This document shows, piece by piece, positions 3 to 63,189 of a stretch of 64,000 nt of DNA. The notes below the pieces were generated by a model. That model was not told the origin of the DNA. It saw nothing but the letters and a program-made list of their open reading frames with translations, and searched no databases. The translations under genes and the position numbers were made by a program. Within the stretch, counting starts at the first letter, position 1. Each line of letters begins with the position of its first letter. This DNA comes from a phage: the sequence record OZ346219.1. One strand, written 5' to 3'.

Positions 3-863
3 ATGCGTGATTATCTTTCTTTGCTGAAAGGTGATTATATCATTGCGATGGCAACTCATGGAGAATTGTTTGCAGATCCGATAAGTGATGTTGTATTTTC
101 TAAGATGGGATCGGTATCATTCCCGAATCACATTTTGTTACAGCAAATGCCTCGTGTATCATATGCAGCAATTTATTCTACTAAAATGGGTAAAATTGTG
201 TGCGAAGGGATGCAAGCAACTCACGGGGAAGGACAAGATTCATCTATACAAATTGAGAAAGTCTATGATACTATAGATGATCTTGCTATAACAGGAACAC
301 CACAACGATTTTTAGATTATCCGGTTGAGTATGTTAGCGAAGATGCCGAACATTTCGAGCTAATACAATGGCCTCGTGATGAGACCAGCGCCCCACTTGA
401 GGATTTTAACATAAAGACAGGTGACAAACTATCAATATCCTTTGAATTGTTCCGTGATAGTGCCGCAGCCGCAGCCAACGTAACAGCGCGTTTCTATCAC
501 AACTACTTCACCGATGGACAATATCAAACTGGTGTTCGATACAATGCCAGCAAAAAAGACCAATGGGAAAAGTTTGAAGCCGTCTATACCGTACCGGAAG
601 GAGTTGATAGTGTAGTAACTGGTTGTATCAGATATCCAACCAACTCCAATGAAGGTATTGTTAAAATTAGAAACATACTAATAACGCCGATCAGTGGAGT
701 CGTCAAAACTACTGGTCCTACTTCATTTGGTGTTAATGGTGTTAGAACAACTCATATTCAGGATAACGGTGATTTTACTAACCCTGTAATGAGTCTTCTT
801 AAACTACCCAGAGATAATAAACACATCACATCCAACAACTTTAAAGAGTTTGATGTTGATTAA
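3..863 (+). CDS. long tail fibre protein, gp35-like (or C-terminus of gp34); 5' end truncated by window edge
   Basis: Partial ORF running in from the left edge, immediately upstream of gp36/gp37 in T4 order; identity inferred from synteny only. Confidence 0.45.
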   Translation: MRDYLSLLKGDYIIAMATHGELFADPISDVVFSKMGSVSFPNHILLQQMPRVSYAAIYSTKMGKIVCEGMQATHGEGQDSSIQIEKVYDTIDDLAITGTPQRFLDYPVEYVSEDAEHFELIQWPRDETSAPLEDFNIKTGDKLSISFELFRDSAAAAANVTARFYHNYFTDGQYQTGVRYNASKKDQWEKFEAVYTVPEGVDSVVTGCIRYPTNSNEGIVKIRNILITPISGVVKTTGPTSFGVNGVRTTHIQDNGDFTNPVMSLLKLPRDNKHITSNNFKEFDVD

Positions 864-1066: not shown

Positions 1067-2557
1067 ATGGCAGATTTGAAATATGGATCTACTGTAGGTG
1101 GATCTCCCATTTGGACGCAAGGAAATTTGACGATCCAGCCAGCGGGGGATCAGCTTTTCTACAAAGGTCATAAAATCTATACCGCTTTTGATAGACCTTC
1201 GGCTACCGATTTTGATGCTGTTAGTGCATCCGAAGGTGGCACATTTCAAAAGCAAGTTCATTTCGAGGAAGGTTTAAGCGTAGGTAGCGCATCGGCTGGA
1301 GAAACCAAAAAGAATGGTATCTTTAAAGGTCAGAGTGACGCTGCTAATTTTGACGGCGTAAGCTGGGGTTTGCATTCATGGAAGTCAATCGGCTTTGTTA
1401 ATGCCCGTGATGGCGTTATTATGGCGTATATTGACACCACAACGGGCGAATTTAAGTCTAAAGGGACTATCGAAGGGACAACCATTAAAGACACAGGTCA
1501 ACGCGTCTATAGCCCTGTTAATAAACCAACGAATAATGATTTGGATTTAGTTTCCCGTCGCGGTGATACTCTCACAGGAACATATAATTTAAACACTGTC
1601 ACTGTTAAACTATCGGTTGATTCGAAATTAATTGCAAGGGAACGTGATTTAATTAATTTTGATGCGACTAAGATCTATTATGGTAACGTTCTTGATACGT
1701 TGGTCTTCCGAAGTAAAGATGAGCCTACCATTTTTGTTAATGGCAAAGAAGGTCGTTTTTATCACACCAACAATAAACCAACTAAAGCCGATGTTGGGCT
1801 AGGCAATGTCACCAATGATGCACAGGTTAAACGTGCTGGTGATATTATGGAAGGTAACTTGCAAGCGCCTAGAATGTTGGCGACAAACGATCCTGCTGGT
1901 CCTAATGAATTGGTTCGTTTGAGCTACTTTGAGAGAAAATCAATGGTAGCAAATCCAACCATCATTGGAAACGTTGATTGGAACACTCTTATTAATCGCG
2001 GTATCTATCGTGTGGAAAATGCTGGATCAGGTACTAATAAACCGTCTGATAGCTATTATAACGGCGTTTTGATGGTATATCGCCCAGAAGATGCTGTTGG
2101 TACTCGTCGAATTGTTCAGGTGTATTATCCTGAATCTATTGACCATCCGATGTGCTGGCGTTCGTGTTCTAATGAATCATGGACTGCATGGAACTATGTA
2201 GATCACCGTAAATTAGCCGATATTCGCTATGTTAACGTCACTGGCGATACCATGACAGGACCGTTAACTGTTCCTGCTGCAAATGGCGTTAGAACAGCTA
2301 AAACTAACTATAACGGGGATAACTGTTATGCGGCGTTAAGCGGTGCTGATGGTACTGCTATGATTCACCGCATTAGTGATATTAAAGGGACCGAAAAGCT
2401 GGGGATCACCCACGACTCAAAGGTCGTGTTTTTCCGTTCTAGAAACAATACTCAAACCGTGGACCGCTATCAGCTTTATCATGAAGGTAATAAACCTACT
2501 CCGGCTGATGTTGGAGCGGTTCCACTTAATGCGGTGATTGATTTTGGTACTTTCTAA
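1067..2557 (+). CDS. gp36: long tail fibre subunit gp36 (496 aa, longer than T4 gp36)
   Basis: N-terminus MADLKYGSTVGGSPIWTQGN... matches recalled T4 gp36 N-terminus; sits between gp35-like and gp37. Confidence 0.75.
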   Translation: MADLKYGSTVGGSPIWTQGNLTIQPAGDQLFYKGHKIYTAFDRPSATDFDAVSASEGGTFQKQVHFEEGLSVGSASAGETKKNGIFKGQSDAANFDGVSWGLHSWKSIGFVNARDGVIMAYIDTTTGEFKSKGTIEGTTIKDTGQRVYSPVNKPTNNDLDLVSRRGDTLTGTYNLNTVTVKLSVDSKLIARERDLINFDATKIYYGNVLDTLVFRSKDEPTIFVNGKEGRFYHTNNKPTKADVGLGNVTNDAQVKRAGDIMEGNLQAPRMLATNDPAGPNELVRLSYFERKSMVANPTIIGNVDWNTLINRGIYRVENAGSGTNKPSDSYYNGVLMVYRPEDAVGTRRIVQVYYPESIDHPMCWRSCSNESWTAWNYVDHRKLADIRYVNVTGDTMTGPLTVPAANGVRTAKTNYNGDNCYAALSGADGTAMIHRISDIKGTEKLGITHDSKVVFFRSRNNTQTVDRYQLYHEGNKPTPADVGAVPLNAVIDFGTF

Positions 2558-2627: not shown

Positions 2628-5564
2628 ATGGCAGATTTAAACAGAATCCAATTTAAACGTACTAGCACGAAAGGTCGTAAACCTGATGCTACTACAATGA
2701 CGCAAGGTGAACTTGCTATCAACCTGCATGATTATTATTTGTTTACAAAAAATGACTCTGGTTCTATTATTAACTTAAGCTGTCCTCCGATCTATGACCG
2801 CGATGTTATCATGGCTGGTAAAGTAAAGGGAGATTATTACATTTTAGGTAAAACCGCCAATTATCTTGAAGATCAGACAGCGAGAGACCTTAACCGTTTT
2901 GGGGCATTCCGTACCAACGGTCTAGATGGATTTTTAGATTTGACCTTGCATGTTCCTCATTCTGGTGGCGTTCAACATGGTCGAGGATTTACTTTCAATT
3001 ATGGACACACAGGACCGCGCGTAGAAACTTATGGATATAATGCACAGGGACAAAAAGCATTTAGTTATAAAATGTATCACGAAGGTGATAAACCAACTCC
3101 AGGAGAATTGAACGTCTATAGCAAACAAGAAGTAGATAGAATGTTTGTTAAGAACGTTAAACTTTCTACAGGTTCTGGTGATATCGTTGAAGGTTATTTT
3201 AAATTAGCGACTGCGATGATTCCACAAGACGGTCGTAGTGTATTTTTTCGTATTCATGGTGGTAACGGATATAACGTTACTGCATACGATCAAGTTGATA
3301 TTGTAGAAATTGTTATTCGCAGTGGAAATAATCGTCCTAAAGGTGTTAACGTTATTGCATACCGCCGAAATACAAACAAAGCATTTGATGTTTTGGCTGT
3401 TAATACTTCTGGTGATAACTATGATATCTACGTGAAATATCAGCGTTGCACTGATAACGTTATTGTTGAATTTGGTAAAAGTGTTGATGTTAATCTGGTA
3501 GTTCATGACGTTCCAGACTTTGTTGTTGATCGTCCTGTTGGCGATAATGTTATTGGCGGTCGCGCGGTAACTCTTTTCAACACCGAAAACAAACGAGGTG
3601 TGTTGAGTTTTGACGATAACACACAAAATAGTTATGATATTGTTCACTTGAGTAATGATAAGGGTACTGGACGAAAATATATTCGTAAATTCCGTAGTAA
3701 CTATAATGAAACGATCTGGCATGAGACGGTTCAAGGTAACGTATATCGTTTAGCTACTGGAACTACCGACGCAAACGAAGTTCTCAAAATTACCGACCGC
3801 ACGTTGCAAACTGGCAATGCTGTTTTTGATGGTGGTAATAATAATGTTCGTTTACATCGTAAAACCGGAAAAAGTAACTATCTGGAATATTATGATGCCC
3901 GTAACGGAGCAAATAAACGTCAGGGATATATTGGCTATGGTGATGCCACAACTAACCAGTTGTCAATTATTAACGAACTCTCCGAAGGTAATAACTCGAT
4001 TTTCTTTAACGAGACAGGTCAAATTTCACTTAACGTAGGAAAGACAAAAATTGTTCATAGCAACGGACAATATATTTCTACTAACGCCGATAACTATCGT
4101 ATAATTTATGGTAATTATGGAACATTCTGGCGAAATGATAGCGTTAAACTTTATCTCATGTCCACTGCCGAAAATGATAAATGGGGTACTTGGAATAGCT
4201 ATCGACCATTCATTTACAACCTAACCAACGGCGATGTTCAATTGGGTGGTGATGCCAATACAACCGTATTGACCTTAGAAGCAGCAAGCAAAATCTCAAG
4301 ATTTGGTGGTTCTGTTTATAGCGGTGGCGATTTTTATAATAAAGGCCAGTATATCATAATGGAAGCTGGGCGCGCTGGATCTCGCGATTATATTCGATTT
4401 AATCATTGGGGTGATAGTAATAATGCCCGTGATAACGTTTTGTACATAGAAGATAGTCAAGGCCGACATTTTAGCACAGAACGTGCGATGGGTACTGGTG
4501 CTCTTAAAGCATACTTCTTAGGCGATCTTGAAGTCGGTGGTAAGTTTACTTGGGGTAAAAATACAGCTACATCTAGCTTTAATATTCGTGCATGGGGTAA
4601 TGATTCCCGTAAACAAGTATTAGAATGCGCGGATGAAAGTGGGTGGCATTGGTACACACAACGAACGGGCGGTCCTGATACTTCTGCAATTGATTTTGCC
4701 ATCAATGGTACTGTTAGGCCTCAAGCAATTCACACTGGCGGTAATATCACGCTTAACGGTGCTGATATTGAATTTAAACGAAGCGGTAACAAGCATTTAT
4801 GGTTTAGAGATCCGAACGGCTTAGAGTTGGGTCTGTTGTACTGCGATGATGCTGGTGTTATGCGTATTCGTGGGGAGAAATCGACCGAAGTATGGAAATT
4901 CTCAGCAAAACAGATTCATCTGGAAACTGGTACTGCCGGAAATGGTGTAGGCTTGCTTCGTGGTGCTGTAGGTGGTGGCGCATGGACTCAATGGCGAGAT
5001 CGTGGCACTGGCTTGCAGGTTGATTGTCAGCAATCTGAAAACTCAGCGCATAACGTATGGAGAGCTACGCATCAAGGAAAATACCACATCGCGGCAATGG
5101 GTGTACACGTTCCTGGTGGTACTATCGGAAATGCTATGGTGCGTATTCACGTACACGATGCAACTTTTGACTTTAGCGCAACTGGTGATTTCCAAGCAGG
5201 TCGTAACGGTAATTTTAACGATGTGTACATTCGTTCTGATGCTCGCCTGAAAATCAATAAGGAAGAGTATAAAGAGAATGCTACCGATAAAGTTAATCGC
5301 TTGACGGTATACACCTATGACAAGGTTAAATCTTTAACTGACCGTACTGTCATTGCTCATGAAGTTGGTATTATTGCTCAGGATCTTGAGAAAGAATTGC
5401 CAGAAGCAGTAAAAACCTCGAAGATCGGCGACGGTGATACACCAGAAGAGATCTTAACAATTTCTAACTCTGCTGTCAACGCTCTTTTAATTAAGGCGTT
5501 TCAGGAAATGAGTGAAGAACTTAAAGCCGTTAAAGCTGAACTAGCGGAACTTAAAAAGAATTAA
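2628..5564 (+). CDS. gp37: long tail fibre distal subunit gp37 (978 aa) with C-terminal intramolecular chaperone (peptidase S74-like) domain
   Basis: N-terminus MADLNRIQFKRTSTKGRKPD...GELAINL matches T4 gp37. C-terminus ...SDARLKINKEEY...AHEVGIIAQDLEKELPEAV...LKAVKAELAELKKN fits the S-D-x-R-L-K autocleaving chaperone domain of endosialidase-type fibres and lacks the T4 HxH needle repeats. Confidence 0.85.
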   Translation: MADLNRIQFKRTSTKGRKPDATTMTQGELAINLHDYYLFTKNDSGSIINLSCPPIYDRDVIMAGKVKGDYYILGKTANYLEDQTARDLNRFGAFRTNGLDGFLDLTLHVPHSGGVQHGRGFTFNYGHTGPRVETYGYNAQGQKAFSYKMYHEGDKPTPGELNVYSKQEVDRMFVKNVKLSTGSGDIVEGYFKLATAMIPQDGRSVFFRIHGGNGYNVTAYDQVDIVEIVIRSGNNRPKGVNVIAYRRNTNKAFDVLAVNTSGDNYDIYVKYQRCTDNVIVEFGKSVDVNLVVHDVPDFVVDRPVGDNVIGGRAVTLFNTENKRGVLSFDDNTQNSYDIVHLSNDKGTGRKYIRKFRSNYNETIWHETVQGNVYRLATGTTDANEVLKITDRTLQTGNAVFDGGNNNVRLHRKTGKSNYLEYYDARNGANKRQGYIGYGDATTNQLSIINELSEGNNSIFFNETGQISLNVGKTKIVHSNGQYISTNADNYRIIYGNYGTFWRNDSVKLYLMSTAENDKWGTWNSYRPFIYNLTNGDVQLGGDANTTVLTLEAASKISRFGGSVYSGGDFYNKGQYIIMEAGRAGSRDYIRFNHWGDSNNARDNVLYIEDSQGRHFSTERAMGTGALKAYFLGDLEVGGKFTWGKNTATSSFNIRAWGNDSRKQVLECADESGWHWYTQRTGGPDTSAIDFAINGTVRPQAIHTGGNITLNGADIEFKRSGNKHLWFRDPNGLELGLLYCDDAGVMRIRGEKSTEVWKFSAKQIHLETGTAGNGVGLLRGAVGGGAWTQWRDRGTGLQVDCQQSENSAHNVWRATHQGKYHIAAMGVHVPGGTIGNAMVRIHVHDATFDFSATGDFQAGRNGNFNDVYIRSDARLKINKEEYKENATDKVNRLTVYTYDKVKSLTDRTVIAHEVGIIAQDLEKELPEAVKTSKIGDGDTPEEILTISNSAVNALLIKAFQEMSEELKAVKAELAELKKN

Positions 5565-5598
5565 GGAAACTCCCAGGGAAGGGAACTACTAAGGAGAA

Positions 5599-5844
5599 AT
5601 GGCTATGGTCTATAATATCGTCATTGGTGCTTTATCTAATTTCGGAATGAAATTATTGTCAAAGTTAATTAGTGAAAAGATGCTCACTAAAATTTTCTTC
5701 TATTGCGCTCGTCGTCTTGCGGCTTATACCAATACACCAATTGACGATCGTTTTGTGGAAGAACTTTATAAGGAGTTTAATAAAGACCAGTCAGAAGATA
5801 GTAACGAGCAAGATAAACCTAGTGATAGTCAACTACCTAAATAA
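5599..5844 (+). CDS. hypothetical small protein (81 aa), hydrophobic N-terminus, acidic C-terminus
   Basis: Strong RBS (AAGGAG) 5 nt upstream of the ATG; occupies the slot between gp37 and holin t where T-even phages carry gp38. Confidence 0.45.
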   Translation: MAMVYNIVIGALSNFGMKLLSKLISEKMLTKIFFYCARRLAAYTNTPIDDRFVEELYKEFNKDQSEDSNEQDKPSDSQLPK

Positions 5845-5877: not shown

Positions 5878-6534
5878 ATGCAAGTTTCTGAAAAAGGGAA
5901 AGACTTTGCTATCTCAAATGTCCTGCGCGCTATTTTCACAACTAAAAGCACGGAGTTGCTCGTACTTCGTGTTTTTGCTGCCGTCGTGTTGTCCATATTG
6001 GCATTTGTCGTTTATAGTAAAAACGAGTTATTTGCGCTTTATAAAGAGACTCGTTATGAGACTTATGCTCACATTCTCCAGGTAGAGAAAGACCGCAATT
6101 TTGATAATGCAGCACAGGAGCAGTTACAGATAGTTCATGTGTCGGCTGATGCCGATTTTTCTGCTGTTTTTAGTTTTCGTCCGAAAAACCTAAACTATTT
6201 TGTTGATTTGGTGGCATATGAAGGAAAGCTACCACACACAATCGATGAAAAAAATTTAGGCGGATTCCCTATCAATAAAACGAGTGAAGAATATCGTAGG
6301 CATCTTTTAGGTAAATCATATTTTACCGATAAAGATTTCCAGTATATTCCATCAAGAGAAAAGAAATTAGAGAATATCGATATAGGTTTCATGTATTCTT
6401 GTCCTATATTCAATCTCGATAATGTCTATTCTGGTAGTATCGCCATTTCATGGAAGAATAAACCGGATATTGACATTGAGAATTTAGATACTCTTTGCAA
6501 TCAATCTGCCAGAATCCTCGGAAGGATTAGATAA
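5878..6534 (+). CDS. t: holin t (218 aa)
   Basis: Same length as T4 holin; conserved stretches LQIVHVSADADFSAVFSFRPKNLNYFVD, YSCPIFNLDNVYSGSI, ARILGR match the recalled T4 T sequence. Confidence 0.9.
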   Translation: MQVSEKGKDFAISNVLRAIFTTKSTELLVLRVFAAVVLSILAFVVYSKNELFALYKETRYETYAHILQVEKDRNFDNAAQEQLQIVHVSADADFSAVFSFRPKNLNYFVDLVAYEGKLPHTIDEKNLGGFPINKTSEEYRRHLLGKSYFTDKDFQYIPSREKKLENIDIGFMYSCPIFNLDNVYSGSIAISWKNKPDIDIENLDTLCNQSARILGRIR

Positions 6535-8823: not shown

Positions 8824-9582
8824 TTACTTGCAAACGTATTGATCTACATCAATTGCGCCACCGAATGTAGGATGACGTTTTTCAAATCGAATAGTTCCGT
8901 CGTTTGGTTCGAAAACGGAGTATTCATATAGATCTTTCTTACCAACATTCTTATAAAACCCGCCTTTAGTCATAACGGTTTCTTGTACGTTTGCTTTGTG
9001 TACGTTGTATTCATCAATGTATACAAAATCAACCATCTTCCCATTTTTAATGGTTACTTTAAGATCTCCTGGTTGATTTCCATATTTGGCATACAGTGGC
9101 GCTTCTTTAATTTTTGTGGAAATTCCATCTTTCATACTCCACTCATAACGAACGGTGCATTGATAGGTAAAAGTTTCGACCTTCGGTTCTTCTACCACTT
9201 TTGCTTCCTGTTTCGGTTGTTCTTCTTCAACCTTCGCAGAAGTCTCTGAATCGCTTTCTGACGCGGTTTCTTCTTTAGGTAATACATTCATCAAGTTTTG
9301 GATTTGAGCGTTGTATACAGCCTCCAGTGGCTGAATCTGCCCGATATTGATCATTGTGTCACGAACAGTTTTATTCCAGTTTCGTTGCTCTTGTTTCAGA
9401 GACGGATCAATCTTAACAGCCTTAACATACACCTCATGAAGTTTAGAGTCCAGTGCGGAGATAGACTCATTAGCACAAATAAACTTCTCTGATTTGGTAG
9501 TAGCTTTAGCGCAATCAAAGGACGCAGCGTTAGCACCGAAAGCAGTAGCAGAAAGAACGATAGCAGCGATAATGTTTTTCAT
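8824..9582 (-). CDS. secreted protein with N-terminal LprI/DUF1311-like (lysozyme-inhibitor-type) domain
   Basis: Signal peptide MKNIIAAIVLSATAFGANA; then SFDCAKATTKSEKFICANESISALDSKLHEVY matching the C-x-x-A-x-T-x-x-E-x-x-I-C...LD..L...Y DUF1311 signature; own promoter and RBS GAGGAA. Confidence 0.6.
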   Translation of the reverse strand: MKNIIAAIVLSATAFGANAASFDCAKATTKSEKFICANESISALDSKLHEVYVKAVKIDPSLKQEQRNWNKTVRDTMINIGQIQPLEAVYNAQIQNLMNVLPKEETASESDSETSAKVEEEQPKQEAKVVEEPKVETFTYQCTVRYEWSMKDGISTKIKEAPLYAKYGNQPGDLKVTIKNGKMVDFVYIDEYNVHKANVQETVMTKGGFYKNVGKKDLYEYSVFEPNDGTIRFEKRHPTFGGAIDVDQYVCK

Positions 9583-59800: not shown

Positions 59801-60577
59801 TTACACGCGAGCACCGTAGATCGTGCCTACTTTATCCCAGCGAGGGGCATTACCAGTAACAGCTTTACCCGCAGCACCACCGTTATATTCTGTACCGTTC
59901 CCCTGAGTATTACATCTTCCTCCAGCAGCACCAACGTTACCGCCCGCACCACCTGTATATGCACTAAGAGACCCCTTACCAACAGATCCTTTACCCGGAG
60001 CGGAAATGGAGCCAGCGGTTGCACCAGAACCCATATTAGAGGAAGACCCGGCAGCACCGAATGGGCGACCACCGCCGCCACCAAATACTAGTCGACCCCT
60101 GTTACCGCCGCCACCGCCACCACCGCCGCCAGCGATAGCACCGTTATTTGTAATTCGTAGACGTGTACCGATAGCGTTATTGATTGCGTTTCCACCAGCA
60201 GCGCCAGCAGCGTTACTACCACCATTACCCCCACGTCCGTAGACAGTCACACCGGAGTTAATGATCAATGTTACATATTCGTTTGTTAACGAGCTAGGGA
60301 AGTCAAGACAAGGAACGCCAGTAGATTGGGAAACAATATTACCTGTGATAGTAATTACTACCGGAGTAGATCCTTGTGCTTTCATCCAGTTAATAAGAGT
60401 GTCTTTATTGTAAGAGTTACTAGCACCAATGCTATAATGAATCTCTTTAGAACGTCCGACCATTGCTGACATATACGCCGGACGACCTAAGCGAACAGCT
60501 TGCATTGCGGCGCTCATCCACCGTTGACCAGTCTCGGACACAGCAGATGATCCTACCCATCCAGAAGATATTGCCAT
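59801..60577 (-). CDS. glycine-rich protein resembling the T2/S16-type gp38 tail-fibre adhesin (258 aa)
   Basis: N-terminus SSGWVGSSAVSETGQRWMSAAMQAVRLG then repeated poly-Gly motifs (GRGGNGGSN, GGGGGGGGGNRG, FGGGGGRPFGAAG) separated by short variable segments; assignment from recalled family features only. Confidence 0.5.
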   Translation of the reverse strand: MAISSGWVGSSAVSETGQRWMSAAMQAVRLGRPAYMSAMVGRSKEIHYSIGASNSYNKDTLINWMKAQGSTPVVITITGNIVSQSTGVPCLDFPSSLTNEYVTLIINSGVTVYGRGGNGGSNAAGAAGGNAINNAIGTRLRITNNGAIAGGGGGGGGGNRGRLVFGGGGGRPFGAAGSSSNMGSGATAGSISAPGKGSVGKGSLSAYTGGAGGNVGAAGGRCNTQGNGTEYNGGAAGKAVTGNAPRWDKVGTIYGARV

Positions 60578-60581
60578 AAAA

Positions 60582-60613
60582 TTTCCTCACAAGAAAAGCC
60601 CCAATTAAGGGGC
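60582..60613 (-). terminator. stem-loop GCCCC-ttaatt-GGGGC plus U-run immediately upstream of the gp38-like ATG
   Basis: 5-bp GC stem followed on the minus strand by TTTTCTTG, RBS GAGGAAA and ATG. Confidence 0.4.
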
Positions 60614-60631
60614 ATTGATTGATAATATTAC

Positions 60632-60853
60632 TTAGATGACCTCTGCTTCACCATCCAGGAAGAAAGACCATGTTTTGTTAGGATAGCGAAGCGCCCATGA
60701 TTCAGCAGTTTTAACACCCGCTTCGAACAATTGACGGCTGGTTACTTTAGCCATACCATCTTCGATGGCAACGTTTTCAATAATCATCGGGTACTTAGCG
60801 CCACGCATGAAACCGAAACCAGCGGAAGATTTGATAATTTTAACAGTTGCCAT
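60632..60853 (-). CDS. hypothetical protein (73 aa), distant MKIEIID-family member
   Basis: MATVKIIKSSAGFGFMRGAKYPMIIENVAI...LFEAGV parallels the 58042/58318 paralogs; promoter and RBS upstream. Confidence 0.45.
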   Translation of the reverse strand: MATVKIIKSSAGFGFMRGAKYPMIIENVAIEDGMAKVTSRQLFEAGVKTAESWALRYPNKTWSFFLDGEAEVI

Positions 60854-60894
60854 TTTTGATTCTCCTAGAAAGTGTATCTCGTTTCGATGGGTGT

Positions 60895-60923
60895 ATTATG
60901 CAATAACACCGGATCGCTGTCAA
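60895..60923 (-). promoter_or_regulatory. early promoter TTGACA-17-CATAAT
   Basis: Minus strand: TTGACAgcgatccggtgttattgCATAAT. Confidence 0.5.
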
Positions 60924-60940
60924 CACTTTCTAAGAAATTT

Positions 60941-61225
60941 TTAAACTAATCGAATATAGCCCAGAATTTCAGCACTTTTAGCCAGATCTAAAACTTCCCA
61001 TTCAAGGTCTCCATAGTCATAATTTGCAACCATCAACTGACCATTTTTCATGCAGCAATCATGAGAGAAAATTTGCCCCGCATAAACTACGATAGTGATA
61101 AACTTTCCTGATTCTGGCGGTGTGGAAGACAAAGCGACCATATGACCATTCAGCTTAGTCACCAGTGATGGAACAATAAAATTCGGGCTTACCTTAATAC
61201 CGTTAAATTCGTTTGTGTCTTTCAT
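60941..61225 (-). CDS. hypothetical protein (94 aa)
   Basis: Track ORF. Confidence 0.4.
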   Translation of the reverse strand: MKDTNEFNGIKVSPNFIVPSLVTKLNGHMVALSSTPPESGKFITIVVYAGQIFSHDCCMKNGQLMVANYDYGDLEWEVLDLAKSAEILGYIRLV

Positions 61226-62433: not shown

Positions 62434-62832
62434 TTAAGACAGTCGAGTGAGTTTATAAATTGTTTTAAAACATAGAGCTTTGATATCGTCTAAAACGCTC
62501 TGTAACGAGCTATCAACATCATTATAAATCTCACTAGCCATTTGCGTTAACTCTTGCAAATAGGCAATTTCGCTAATCTCCTTGCGGACGACCAACGTTG
62601 GCTGATAACGACCAGTGATCCCAATATTGGTTTCAGTGAAATCATCAACCAATTCTTGCATTTCAAGATAGAACTCTTCTAGAGCCTTATGTTTTGCATA
62701 AGATCCAGGACCAGTTACCCCAAAATGCGCAGAATGCATATAAGTAACACTCATCAGACATTCACCGATAAAGCGGTCAACTTTATTAGCTTTCCCCTCT
62801 TCGGACGTCTTTAGAAAATCAATGAATTTCAT
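62434..62832 (-). CDS. hypothetical protein (132 aa; positional equivalent of T4 rI.-1)
   Basis: Track ORF trimmed to the internal ATG (MKFIDF...) to avoid a long overlap with the rI-like gene. Confidence 0.4.
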   Translation of the reverse strand: MKFIDFLKTSEEGKANKVDRFIGECLMSVTYMHSAHFGVTGPGSYAKHKALEEFYLEMQELVDDFTETNIGITGRYQPTLVVRKEISEIAYLQELTQMASEIYNDVDSSLQSVLDDIKALCFKTIYKLTRLS

Positions 62833-63121
62833 GTTCTCTATTCTCCATATTATGCAACATAACAAACTGTTGTGCGGCATATTCCCCCATAATAAAACAC
62901 TGCTTAGAATCCATACATTTACTACGAGCATACATCTTCATAATATGGGCATGAAATTTCTGGCTGGTTTCAATGGAAGGAGATATTTTGTTTACATATA
63001 CTATCATTGCACCGTCGAAATAATCAGTAAAGTCACCAGTTGGATCATATTGATCAGCACTGACACTTCCGACCGCAGTCAAGCATATTGCCGCTGTTAG
63101 AGTTTTACGAATAAATGACAT
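62819..63121 (-). CDS. rI: RI-like antiholin (lysis-inhibition) candidate (100 aa)
   Basis: N-terminal signal/anchor MSFIRKTLTAAICLTAVGSVSA plus ~75-aa periplasmic domain; immediately next to tk as rI is in T4. Confidence 0.45.
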   Translation of the reverse strand: MSFIRKTLTAAICLTAVGSVSADQYDPTGDFTDYFDGAMIVYVNKISPSIETSQKFHAHIMKMYARSKCMDSKQCFIMGEYAAQQFVMLHNMENREHEIH

Positions 63122-63189
63122 AAGTCATTCCCCCAGATTTAAAATATTCAGTTATATTTATAATCTGGGGCTTTATTTATGATTAACTC

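Follow-up and report, generated by a model that had tools for sequence, protein, structure and literature searches.

In T2-type phages, the long tail fibre protein gp37 undergoes processing at its C terminus before gp38 caps it (Trojet 2011). The cleavage site of gp37 of phage S16 is DLNVS^SDRRIKK (^ marks the cut), and pb1 of phage T5 is cleaved between Thr1263 and Ser1264. For RB49, Efimov 2022 (PMC9569957) stated by homology that gp37 has a self-cleaving chaperone, after which gp38 attaches, and described two gp38 mutations (E230K and Y231S) that alter the host range. The type of fibre tip found in RB49-like phages, the predicted self-cleavage of gp37 and the relocation of g38 are already published. 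RB49-like phages also carry T4-type spanins (Kongari 2018). In the tail-less phage PM2, the protein P18 is needed for outer-membrane disruption at lysis (review PMC6356626).

We analysed the region from g37 to the holin gene t in a 64,000-nucleotide stretch of phage DNA, referred to as the window. The original prediction was that gp37 ends in a self-cleaving chaperone, that a small unrelated ORF stands in the place of g38, and that the fibre tip differs from those of T4 and T2. We consider it very probable that the phage combines a T2/T6/S16-type tip, in which an S74-type gp37 is capped by a gp38 encoded far away, with a small protein of the PM2 gp l family, most likely a lysis accessory protein, encoded beside t.

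Phage identity and gene map

By sequence, the window is that of a Krischvirus, a T4-type phage resembling RB49, JSE and Phi1. DNA identity to JSE, RB49 and Phi1 is 84–94% over the g37–t region, and the same range (84–94%) holds for g37 itself. The features are listed in Table 1. The gp57A locus lies outside the window; in RB49, the gp57A gene adjoins gene 1, its usual place. The T4 late promoter TATAAATA has only two perfect matches: one precedes g36 (position 1025) and the other the rI-like gene (position 63155, minus strand). The promoter was not found immediately before g38 or the small ORF.

Table 1. Features of the g37–t region and of g38, with positions in the window
Feature	Product or extent	Position	Strand	Basis
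Gene 37	Long tail fibre distal subunit precursor, 978 aa, 108.9 kDa	2628..5564	+	ORF; PHROG 1699
Predicted mature gp37	Residues 1–869, 96.7 kDa, end ...NFNDVYIR	2628..5234	+	Homologous cleavage sites (S16, T2-like fPS phages)
Gp34_trimer-like domain in gp37	Residues 459–530	4002..4217	+	Pfam PF21446, E=3.5e-22
C-terminal intramolecular chaperone (S74)	Residues 870–978, 109 aa, 12.2 kDa	5235..5561	+	Pfam Peptidase_S74
Small ORF (= RB49ORF251w)	81 aa	5599..5844	+	phrog_402; PM2 gp l (P18) family, PF26925
Gene t	T4-type holin, 218 aa	5878..6534	+	Phage_holin_T; phrog_860
Gene 38	T2/T6/S16-type long tail fibre adhesin, 258 aa, 27 kDa	59801..60577	-	Pfam GP38 + Gp38_N

The C-terminal chaperone of gp37

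gp37 matched PHROG 1699 ('long tail fiber protein distal subunit') with E=2e-178, and its Gp34_trimer-like domain matched the T4 gp34 structures 4UXE and 5NXF. When the C-terminal region was scanned against Pfam, as the original prediction had suggested, Peptidase_S74 (PF13884) was obtained on residues 870–929 of 978 (E=1.2e-11), with a score of 45.1 bits against a curated cut-off of 22 bits, and the full 58-position profile (1–58) was covered. The predicted S74 chaperone with its SDARLK box was thus borne out. The box begins at Ser870 (codon 5235–5237) and has Lys875 (codon 5250–5252) at +5, which is the Ser/Lys spacing of T5 pb1 (Ser1264/Lys1269) and of S16 (S^SDRRIK). The last 114 residues of gp37 could be aligned with the C terminus of S16 gp37 (6F45_A), and a weaker alignment was obtained with the MYRF self-cleaving domain; the alignment with the S16 chaperone reaches residue 976. 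The protein ends in a long helix (residues ~939–977), the sole confident portion of a single-sequence AF2 model of residues 761–978 (pLDDT 40), and this terminal helix is probably a coiled coil.

The sequence around the box, NDVYIR^SDARLKI, is one residue off that of the T2-like fPS phages (DVYIR^SDGRLKI). Going by its homologues, gp37 would be cut between Arg869 and Ser870. The cut had been expected after the serine of SDARLK; homology to S16 and T5 places it before Ser870. The same C-terminal module was found in 1061 phage records, with many T-even-like gp37 among them. Over its last 168 residues, gp37 is 54% identical to the gp37 of Krischvirus FL15, in which gp38 is encoded adjacently.

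A single HxH motif (HVH at 841) is present in gp37, and the Pfam scan of the protein gave no match to gp37_C, gp37_trimer or a needle domain. Hence, gp37 has no T4-type needle, as had been anticipated. In NCBIfam, no match was obtained for gp37, gp38 or the small ORF.

The gp38 adhesin

A complete gp38 adhesin gene is present in the window. It lies ~54 kb from g37, downstream of tk and rI, where the genome is variable, and its product matched both GP38 (PF05268, E=5.3e-72) and Gp38_N (PF21721, E=3.9e-18) in Pfam. It also gave a full-length match to S16 gp38 (6F45_D, residues 1–255, E=4.6e-49), and matched gp38 of PP01 (9V85). Glycine-rich motifs are present in the sequence. When the attachment Trp residues were compared with those of S16, two of the three (W6 and W19) were found to be kept, the third position being Tyr (Y34). 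In relatives, the gene is annotated as 'receptor recognizing protein'. In FL15, the gene order is gp37, gp38, small ORF and holin t; the small ORF does not hold the gp38 slot, contrary to what had been proposed. As to the tip as a whole, the predicted difference from T4 stands with respect to the needle, but the predicted difference from T2 does not, the tip being of the type present in T2, T6 and S16.

The assembly of such a tip may be outlined by homology. gp37 would be made as a precursor of 978 residues, the last 109 of which (the S74 chaperone) would assist the folding of the trimeric beta-helix. The chaperone would then remove itself by means of the Ser870/Lys875 dyad, cutting at Arg869/Ser870. 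The gp37 end exposed in this way, ...NDVYIR, would be capped by one copy of gp38, which would supply the receptor-binding loops.

The small ORF downstream of g37

The predicted coordinates of the ORFs were found to be correct, but the start of the small ORF is probably the ATG at 5605, giving a protein of 79 aa, because the annotation of RB49 uses the 79-aa start and because the Shine-Dalgarno sequence AAGGAG is 8 nt upstream of 5605 and only 2 nt from 5599. The hydrophobic N terminus that had been noticed is moderate: the best 19-residue Kyte-Doolittle mean is 1.33, under the usual transmembrane threshold of 1.6. In the predicted structure (pLDDT 67), three helices were seen. The helices are basic and amphipathic, and are followed by an acidic tail.

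Profile searches with the small protein, which had been proposed as a check, led to phrog_402 (E=5.5e-20), and PF26925 (Phage_PM2_Gpl) was precomputed on its relatives at 61–92% identity. P17 and P18 of PM2 are gp k and gp l, respectively, as reportedly given by Krupovic et al. 2007; the review PMC6356626 does not employ the gp names. When a family profile built without PM2 was compared with PM2 gp l by hhalign, a probability of 93.3% was obtained (E=2.6e-7). Pairwise BLASTP between the small ORF and PM2 gp l was not significant; the membership of the small ORF in PF26925 is based on the precomputed hits of the relatives and on hhalign.

The small ORF gave no match to the gp38 adhesin or chaperone, to gp57A or to fibre-chaperone families in Pfam, PHROGs and NCBIfam, in agreement with the original prediction that it is unrelated to gp38. 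A divergent gp57A, of similar length, was also considered and rejected; the small ORF could not be aligned with T4 gp57A by BLASTP, and RB49 encodes a separate gp57A. The small ORF does not look like a component of the fibre tip and is no stand-in for gp38. When the small ORF was searched exhaustively with HMMER, giant repetitive proteins were also obtained, namely P0020 (3836 aa, 25 stretches), P0021, P0024, P0025 and P0028. From their sequences and Pfam, these contain unrelated tandem repeats, e.g., YKYTDTPADKRSVDDLHKR, and were rejected as false positives inflated by repeats.

The ORF was found in 315 phage records. Its dN/dS against relatives was ~0.12, with synonymous sites saturated in the distant ones, and it is under purifying selection.

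The small ORF and the holin gene

The small ORF ends 34 nt before the start of t, the product of which was assigned as a holin by both Pfam (Phage_holin_T, E=4.5e-61) and PHROGs (phrog_860, 'holin', E=5e-88). In divergent T4-like phages also, the small ORF is directly upstream of Phage_holin_T, be the end of gp37 of the S74 kind (locus L010) or of the Gp10_C kind (locus L012). In Felixounavirus, the homologue of the small ORF is followed by a protein with a TM segment and a coiled coil, for which many depositors have used the label holin in their annotation. The pairing of the small ORF with holin t is conserved. As the ORF is found upstream of t despite the different gp37 ends, and also beside the putative holins of Felixounavirus, its most likely role would be that of a lysis accessory. 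Considering the genetics of PM2 along with the gene neighbourhood, we give about an even chance to the small ORF encoding a holin-linked lysis accessory protein. Such a protein would be helical and membrane-associated, would be made late together with the holin, and would act as an accessory in lysis. More tentatively, the gene resembling PM2 gp l may constitute, with the adjacent holin gene, a conserved two-gene module across unrelated phages (the T4-like Krischvirus and its relatives, Felixounavirus and PM2). The small protein would then represent a new class of lysis accessories that either disrupt the outer membrane or act as partners of the holin, in addition to the canonical spanins of well-studied coliphages. 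In a literature search, we found no papers on PF26925, RB49ORF251w or PM2 P18, and no discussion of a lysis role for the small ORF was found in the searchable literature.

The small protein could also regulate the single-TMD holin or be its partner, as an antiholin-like protein or a modulator of holin rafts, without disrupting the outer membrane. RB49-like phages already have T4-type spanins, so that an additional outer-membrane disruptor would be redundant. The tight pairing with holins having one N-terminal TMD in T4-like phages, Felixounavirus and PM2, and the succession of basic amphipathic helices and acidic tail, also fit this role. However, the sole genetics for the family, that of PM2 P18, indicates an outer-membrane step, and an rI-type antiholin is already encoded by the phage. 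We consider this role unlikely.

It is also improbable that the small protein is no lysis protein and is associated with the fibre or the virion, as an assembly helper, a minor structural protein or a membrane-contact protein. Such a role would agree with the position of the ORF, which comes immediately after the last gene of the tail fibre in two groups of myoviruses that are unrelated to each other (Krischvirus with other T4-like phages, and Felixounavirus). Since the small ORF is always after the last fibre gene in myoviruses, gene order by itself does not distinguish a role in the fibre from one with the holin. Trojet 2011 considered adhesin or chaperone roles for small ORFs after g37 in general, and in SU10-like podophages a family member is flanked by the capsid and adaptor genes, within the head-neck structural module and away from the lysis genes. 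Against this, the family includes gp l, the lysis factor of a phage that has no tail, and the ORF is kept with either kind of gp37 end and with or without an intervening gp38. Moreover, in a Vibrio phage with a siphophage-sized genome, a member comes after an M15 endolysin with only an HNH endonuclease gene between, and no fibre-chaperone family was matched. It may be noted that phrog_3108, encoded near the family member at three loci (L045, L046 and L047), was considered as a transglycosylase-like endolysin and rejected, as no sequence support was found in Pfam or the PDB.

A phage without any gp38-type adhesin, in which the cleaved tip of gp37 or the 81-aa protein itself binds the receptor and the tip is distinct from those of T4 and T2, would explain why an unrelated ORF occupies the place where g38 is usually found. 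This is very improbable, as the window contains the complete adhesin gene, the host-range mutations of RB49 map to gp38, gp38 and the small ORF occur side by side in FL15, and the docking and cleavage box of gp37 is shared with T2-like phages. Although the ORF is short and annotated only as hypothetical, its low dN/dS, its presence in hundreds of records, its good Shine-Dalgarno sequence and its place in a defined Pfam and PHROG family leave hardly any probability that it arose by chance or is the remnant of a decaying gene.

Significance

The tip made of a self-cleaving gp37 and a gp38 adhesin, as in T2 and S16, is the common form among T-even-like phages, T4 being the exception; this textbook point is confirmed here, and g38 was again found to be relocated, as already published for RB49-like phages. 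For annotation and for the prediction of host range, it follows that the lack of g38 beside g37 does not imply the lack of an adhesin. The tie of RB49ORF251w and its Felixounavirus homologues to PM2 gp l suggests a testable function for a gene that is present in hundreds of coliphages that are therapeutic candidates.

Comparison with known systems

The g37–ORF251w–t locus of RB49, JSE and Phi1 has the same gene order as the window, and the small ORF is 97–100% identical. The window differs from it only allelically, in the variable middle of gp37.

The N-terminal and shaft parts of gp37 are homologous to those of T4, and the locus is likewise upstream of t. Unlike T4 gp37, which has gp38 and gp57A as chaperones, gp37 of the window has neither the iron-binding HxH needle nor gp37_C, and its gp38 is an adhesin. 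In the L-shaped fibre of T5 (pb1) and in the K1F endosialidase (MEROPS S74), the tip exposed by cleavage itself binds the receptor or substrate, whereas in the window the tip would be a docking site for a separate adhesin.

Like PM2 gp l, the small ORF product is a small helical protein, and the two align colinearly (conserved Glu, Ala and Asp; T-x-T-x-[IL]-D-[DN]). In both phages, the gene is beside that of a small holin with one N-terminal TMD, which in PM2 is the holin-like gp k (P17). The protein of the window has ~10 more N-terminal residues and an acidic tail of 20 residues, which PM2 gp l does not have. A lysis function is known only for PM2, which lacks spanins, whereas the phage of the window has spanins, an endolysin and the rI antiholin.

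The closest likeness is to the tip of S16 and T2/T6 (PDB 6F45), in which the C-terminal chaperone of gp37 is autocleaved and a monomeric gp38 forms the cap. The S74 chaperone and the Ser-x4-Lys dyad are shared with these phages, gp57A is kept in the genus, and the cleavage box is nearly identical to that of T2-like phages. The N-terminal attachment domain, the glycine-rich motifs and the variable loops of gp38 are shared as well. In contrast to S16, T2 and T6, g38 of the window is far removed from g37, a known feature of RB49, although the two genes are adjacent in some congeners, e.g., FL15. Unlike in S16, the third attachment Trp of gp38 is replaced by Tyr, and the shaft of gp37 before the box has no sequence relationship to that of S16.

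C-terminal domain of gp37

The features identified in the window are listed in the table. As the g37-t stretch shares 84-94% DNA identity with JSE, RB49, Phi1 and other Krischvirus genomes, the window belongs to an RB49-like T4-type phage.

Coordinates and assignments of features in the window
Feature	Coordinates	Strand	Basis
g35, 3' end	3-863	+	ORF
g36	1067-2557	+	ORF
gp37, 978 aa, long tail fibre distal subunit	2628-5564	+	phrog_1699, E=2e-178
Small ORF, 81 aa	5599-5844	+	ORF; phrog_402, E=5.5e-20
Holin T, 218 aa	5878-6534	+	Pfam Phage_holin_T, E=4.5e-61
252-aa protein, N-terminal signal-like sequence (RB49ORF260c)	8824-9582	minus	Pfam LprI (lysozyme inhibitor) domain, E=1.4e-5
gp38, complete T2/T6/S16-type adhesin	59801-60577	minus	Pfam GP38, E=5.3e-72; Gp38_N, E=3.9e-18
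73-aa ORF	60632-60853	minus	
rI-like antiholin	62819-63121	minus	phrog_1246 'lysis inhibition', E=9.5e-26

At 496 aa, gp36 is over twice as long as T4 gp36 (~220 aa; Trojet 2011), and its match to Pfam Phage_T4_gp36 is weak (E=2.6e-4, under the cut-off). The g36-g37 gap contains a hairpin with a T-run (GCGGGGATTATCTCCCCGCTTTT, 2565-2592), overlapped by a late-promoter motif with one mismatch (TCTAAATA) ~35 nt 5' of the g37 start.

Residues 870-929 of gp37 matched the full Pfam Peptidase_S74 profile (E=1.2e-11; 45 bits, the cut-off being 22 bits), confirming the self-cleaving chaperone domain expected at this end. The S-D-x-R-L-K box was likewise found, as SDARLK; it starts at Ser870, and Lys875 follows five residues later, the same spacing as in the catalytic dyad Ser1264/Lys1269 of T5 pb1 (PMC4690869). 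The final 114 residues could be aligned with the S16 gp37 C-terminus (6F45_A); a weaker alignment was obtained with the domain by which MYRF cleaves itself. Since gp37 has a single HxH motif and the Pfam scan gave no match to gp37_C or the needle domain, the T4-type tip is absent, as had been anticipated.

Cleavage had been proposed after the Ser of SDARLK. The sites in T5 (Thr1263^Ser1264), S16 (DLNVS^SDRRIKK) and T2-like fPS phages (DVYIR^SDGRLKI) all lie before it; hence, the predicted cut in gp37 is Arg869^Ser870. Such a cut would free a chaperone of 109 residues (12.2 kDa), leaving a mature fibre subunit of 96.7 kDa. When the final 162 residues were used as a tblastn query, 1061 phage records were retrieved, among which T-even-like gp37 was frequent. 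The module is thus very common in phages.

The gp38 adhesin and its position

The gp38 gene emerged when the remaining mid-sized ORFs in the window were scanned. Its product, which contains long glycine runs, matched S16 gp38 (6F45_D) over the full length (E=4.6e-49), and PP01 gp38 was matched too. The presence of a complete gene of this type implies that this phage builds its fibre tip in the T2 manner: gp37 would be processed and its end then capped by gp38. RB49 host-range mutations were mapped to gp38 by Efimov et al. (PMC9569957), and receptors have been assigned experimentally for Krischvirus Gp38 adhesins (PMC12032242). RB49 retains gp57A, adjoining gene 1.

It had been suggested that the small ORF holds the gp38 slot. 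In Escherichia phage FL15, a Krischvirus (PP400778, 863-5433), however, the order is gp37 (919 aa), gp38 adhesin, a 79-aa ORF and holin t. The 79-aa ORF is 98.8% identical to the small ORF, and the two gp38 proteins are 57% identical; the gp37 proteins have in common only the first 50 and the final ~168 residues, the latter including the docking end and the chaperone. From this order, the small gene is a constant neighbour of t and does not stand in for gp38; g38 either separates it from g37 or lies elsewhere. Members of this one genus thus differ in where g38 is found, beside g37 (FL15) or ~54 kb off (window, RB49, JSE). These two loci, together with the unrelated shaft of FL15 gp37, point to a g37(3')-g38 module that may have moved by cassette exchange.

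The 73-aa ORF lies 5' of g38, in the minus-strand region 60578-60960, and is served by an early promoter of its own, of sigma70-like type (TTGACA-17-CATAAT, near 60900-60925). A GC-rich hairpin with a T-run (GCCCCTTAATTGGGGCTTTTCTT) ends ~20 nt 5' of the start codon of g38, with no late-promoter consensus between the two. This arrangement of promoter and hairpin resembles the PeSL promoter-terminator cassettes of RB49-like phages. The rI-like gene, directly downstream of tk, is preceded by a perfect T4 late-promoter motif (TATAAATA, 63155-63162), one of only two in the window; g38 lies on the same strand, ~2.2 kb further downstream.

Family and possible role of the small ORF

The small ORF is a real gene, with a dN/dS of ~0.12 against close relatives (synonymous sites are saturated against distant ones). 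Its start is likely ATG 5605, giving 79 aa as in the RB49 annotation, with AAGGAG 8 nt upstream. The profile search that had been proposed placed it in phrog_402, of unknown function; on relatives at 61-92% identity, Pfam PF26925 (Phage_PM2_Gpl) is precomputed. Independently of that model, the 51-aa PM2 gp l could be aligned colinearly with the family, and it was recovered by hhalign with a profile of the family made without PM2 (probability 93.3%, E=2.6e-7); pairwise BLASTP of the two proteins gave no significant match. In PM2, P18 acts in outer-membrane disruption at lysis (PMC6356626). The gp k and gp l genes of PM2 adjoin each other; according to Krupovic et al. 2007, their products are P17 and P18.

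An AF2 model (13-sequence alignment; pLDDT 67, modest confidence) has helices at 2-20, 24-41 and 45-65 and a disordered acidic tail. The hydrophobic N-terminus originally noted holds in part: helix 1 is just moderately hydrophobic here but passes a transmembrane threshold in some relatives, and one relative carries two extra TM segments fused at its N-terminus.

Divergent T4-like contigs have the family member immediately 5' of Phage_holin_T, whether gp37 ends in S74 (contig L010) or in Gp10_C without S74 (L012, L013). The gene goes with the holin, not with the type of fibre end. In Felixounavirus, the last fibre gene is followed by the family member and then by a 123-aa phrog_4038 protein that combines a TM segment at its N-terminus with a coiled coil and that by annotation only is a holin for many depositors and hypothetical for some. 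In Vibrio phage 1.177.O, the family member comes after an M15 endolysin gene, with just an HNH endonuclease gene in between. From these neighbourhoods, weighed for and against, we put a lysis-related role at about an even chance. Against it, a member in SU10-like podophages lies between capsid and adaptor genes, and RB49-like phages already have T4-type spanins (PMC6139136) and an rI-type antiholin. A fibre- or virion-associated role, weighed on the same neighbourhoods, seems rather unlikely.

The conserved pair of gp l-like and phrog_4038 genes, which closes the tail-fibre module, occurs in Felixounavirus EC6 (L002, 6001-6566) and 261 related records; in EC6, an embedded +1 ORF of 30 aa (6244-6336) contains the lipobox-like motif LLGC. 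In two metagenomic phage contigs unrelated to each other (L045, 306-857, the same gene in L046; L047, 548-1042), the gp l-like gene has close by it a gene for a phrog_3108 protein of ~165-184 aa, a family of unknown function with no Pfam or PDB sequence match.

Comparison with known systems

Novel here is just that the small ORF can be assigned to the PM2 gp l family and is consistently paired with holins, which provides a testable, modestly interesting hypothesis. The literature on RB49 (Trojet et al.; Efimov et al.) already describes a self-cleaving end of gp37 and a g38 that has moved, its usual place being occupied by a small ORF. The original prediction was correct in its observation and half right in its biological conclusion: with its S74 end and no needle, the tip is unlike that of T4, but with its gp38 adhesin it is the same as that of T2 and S16.
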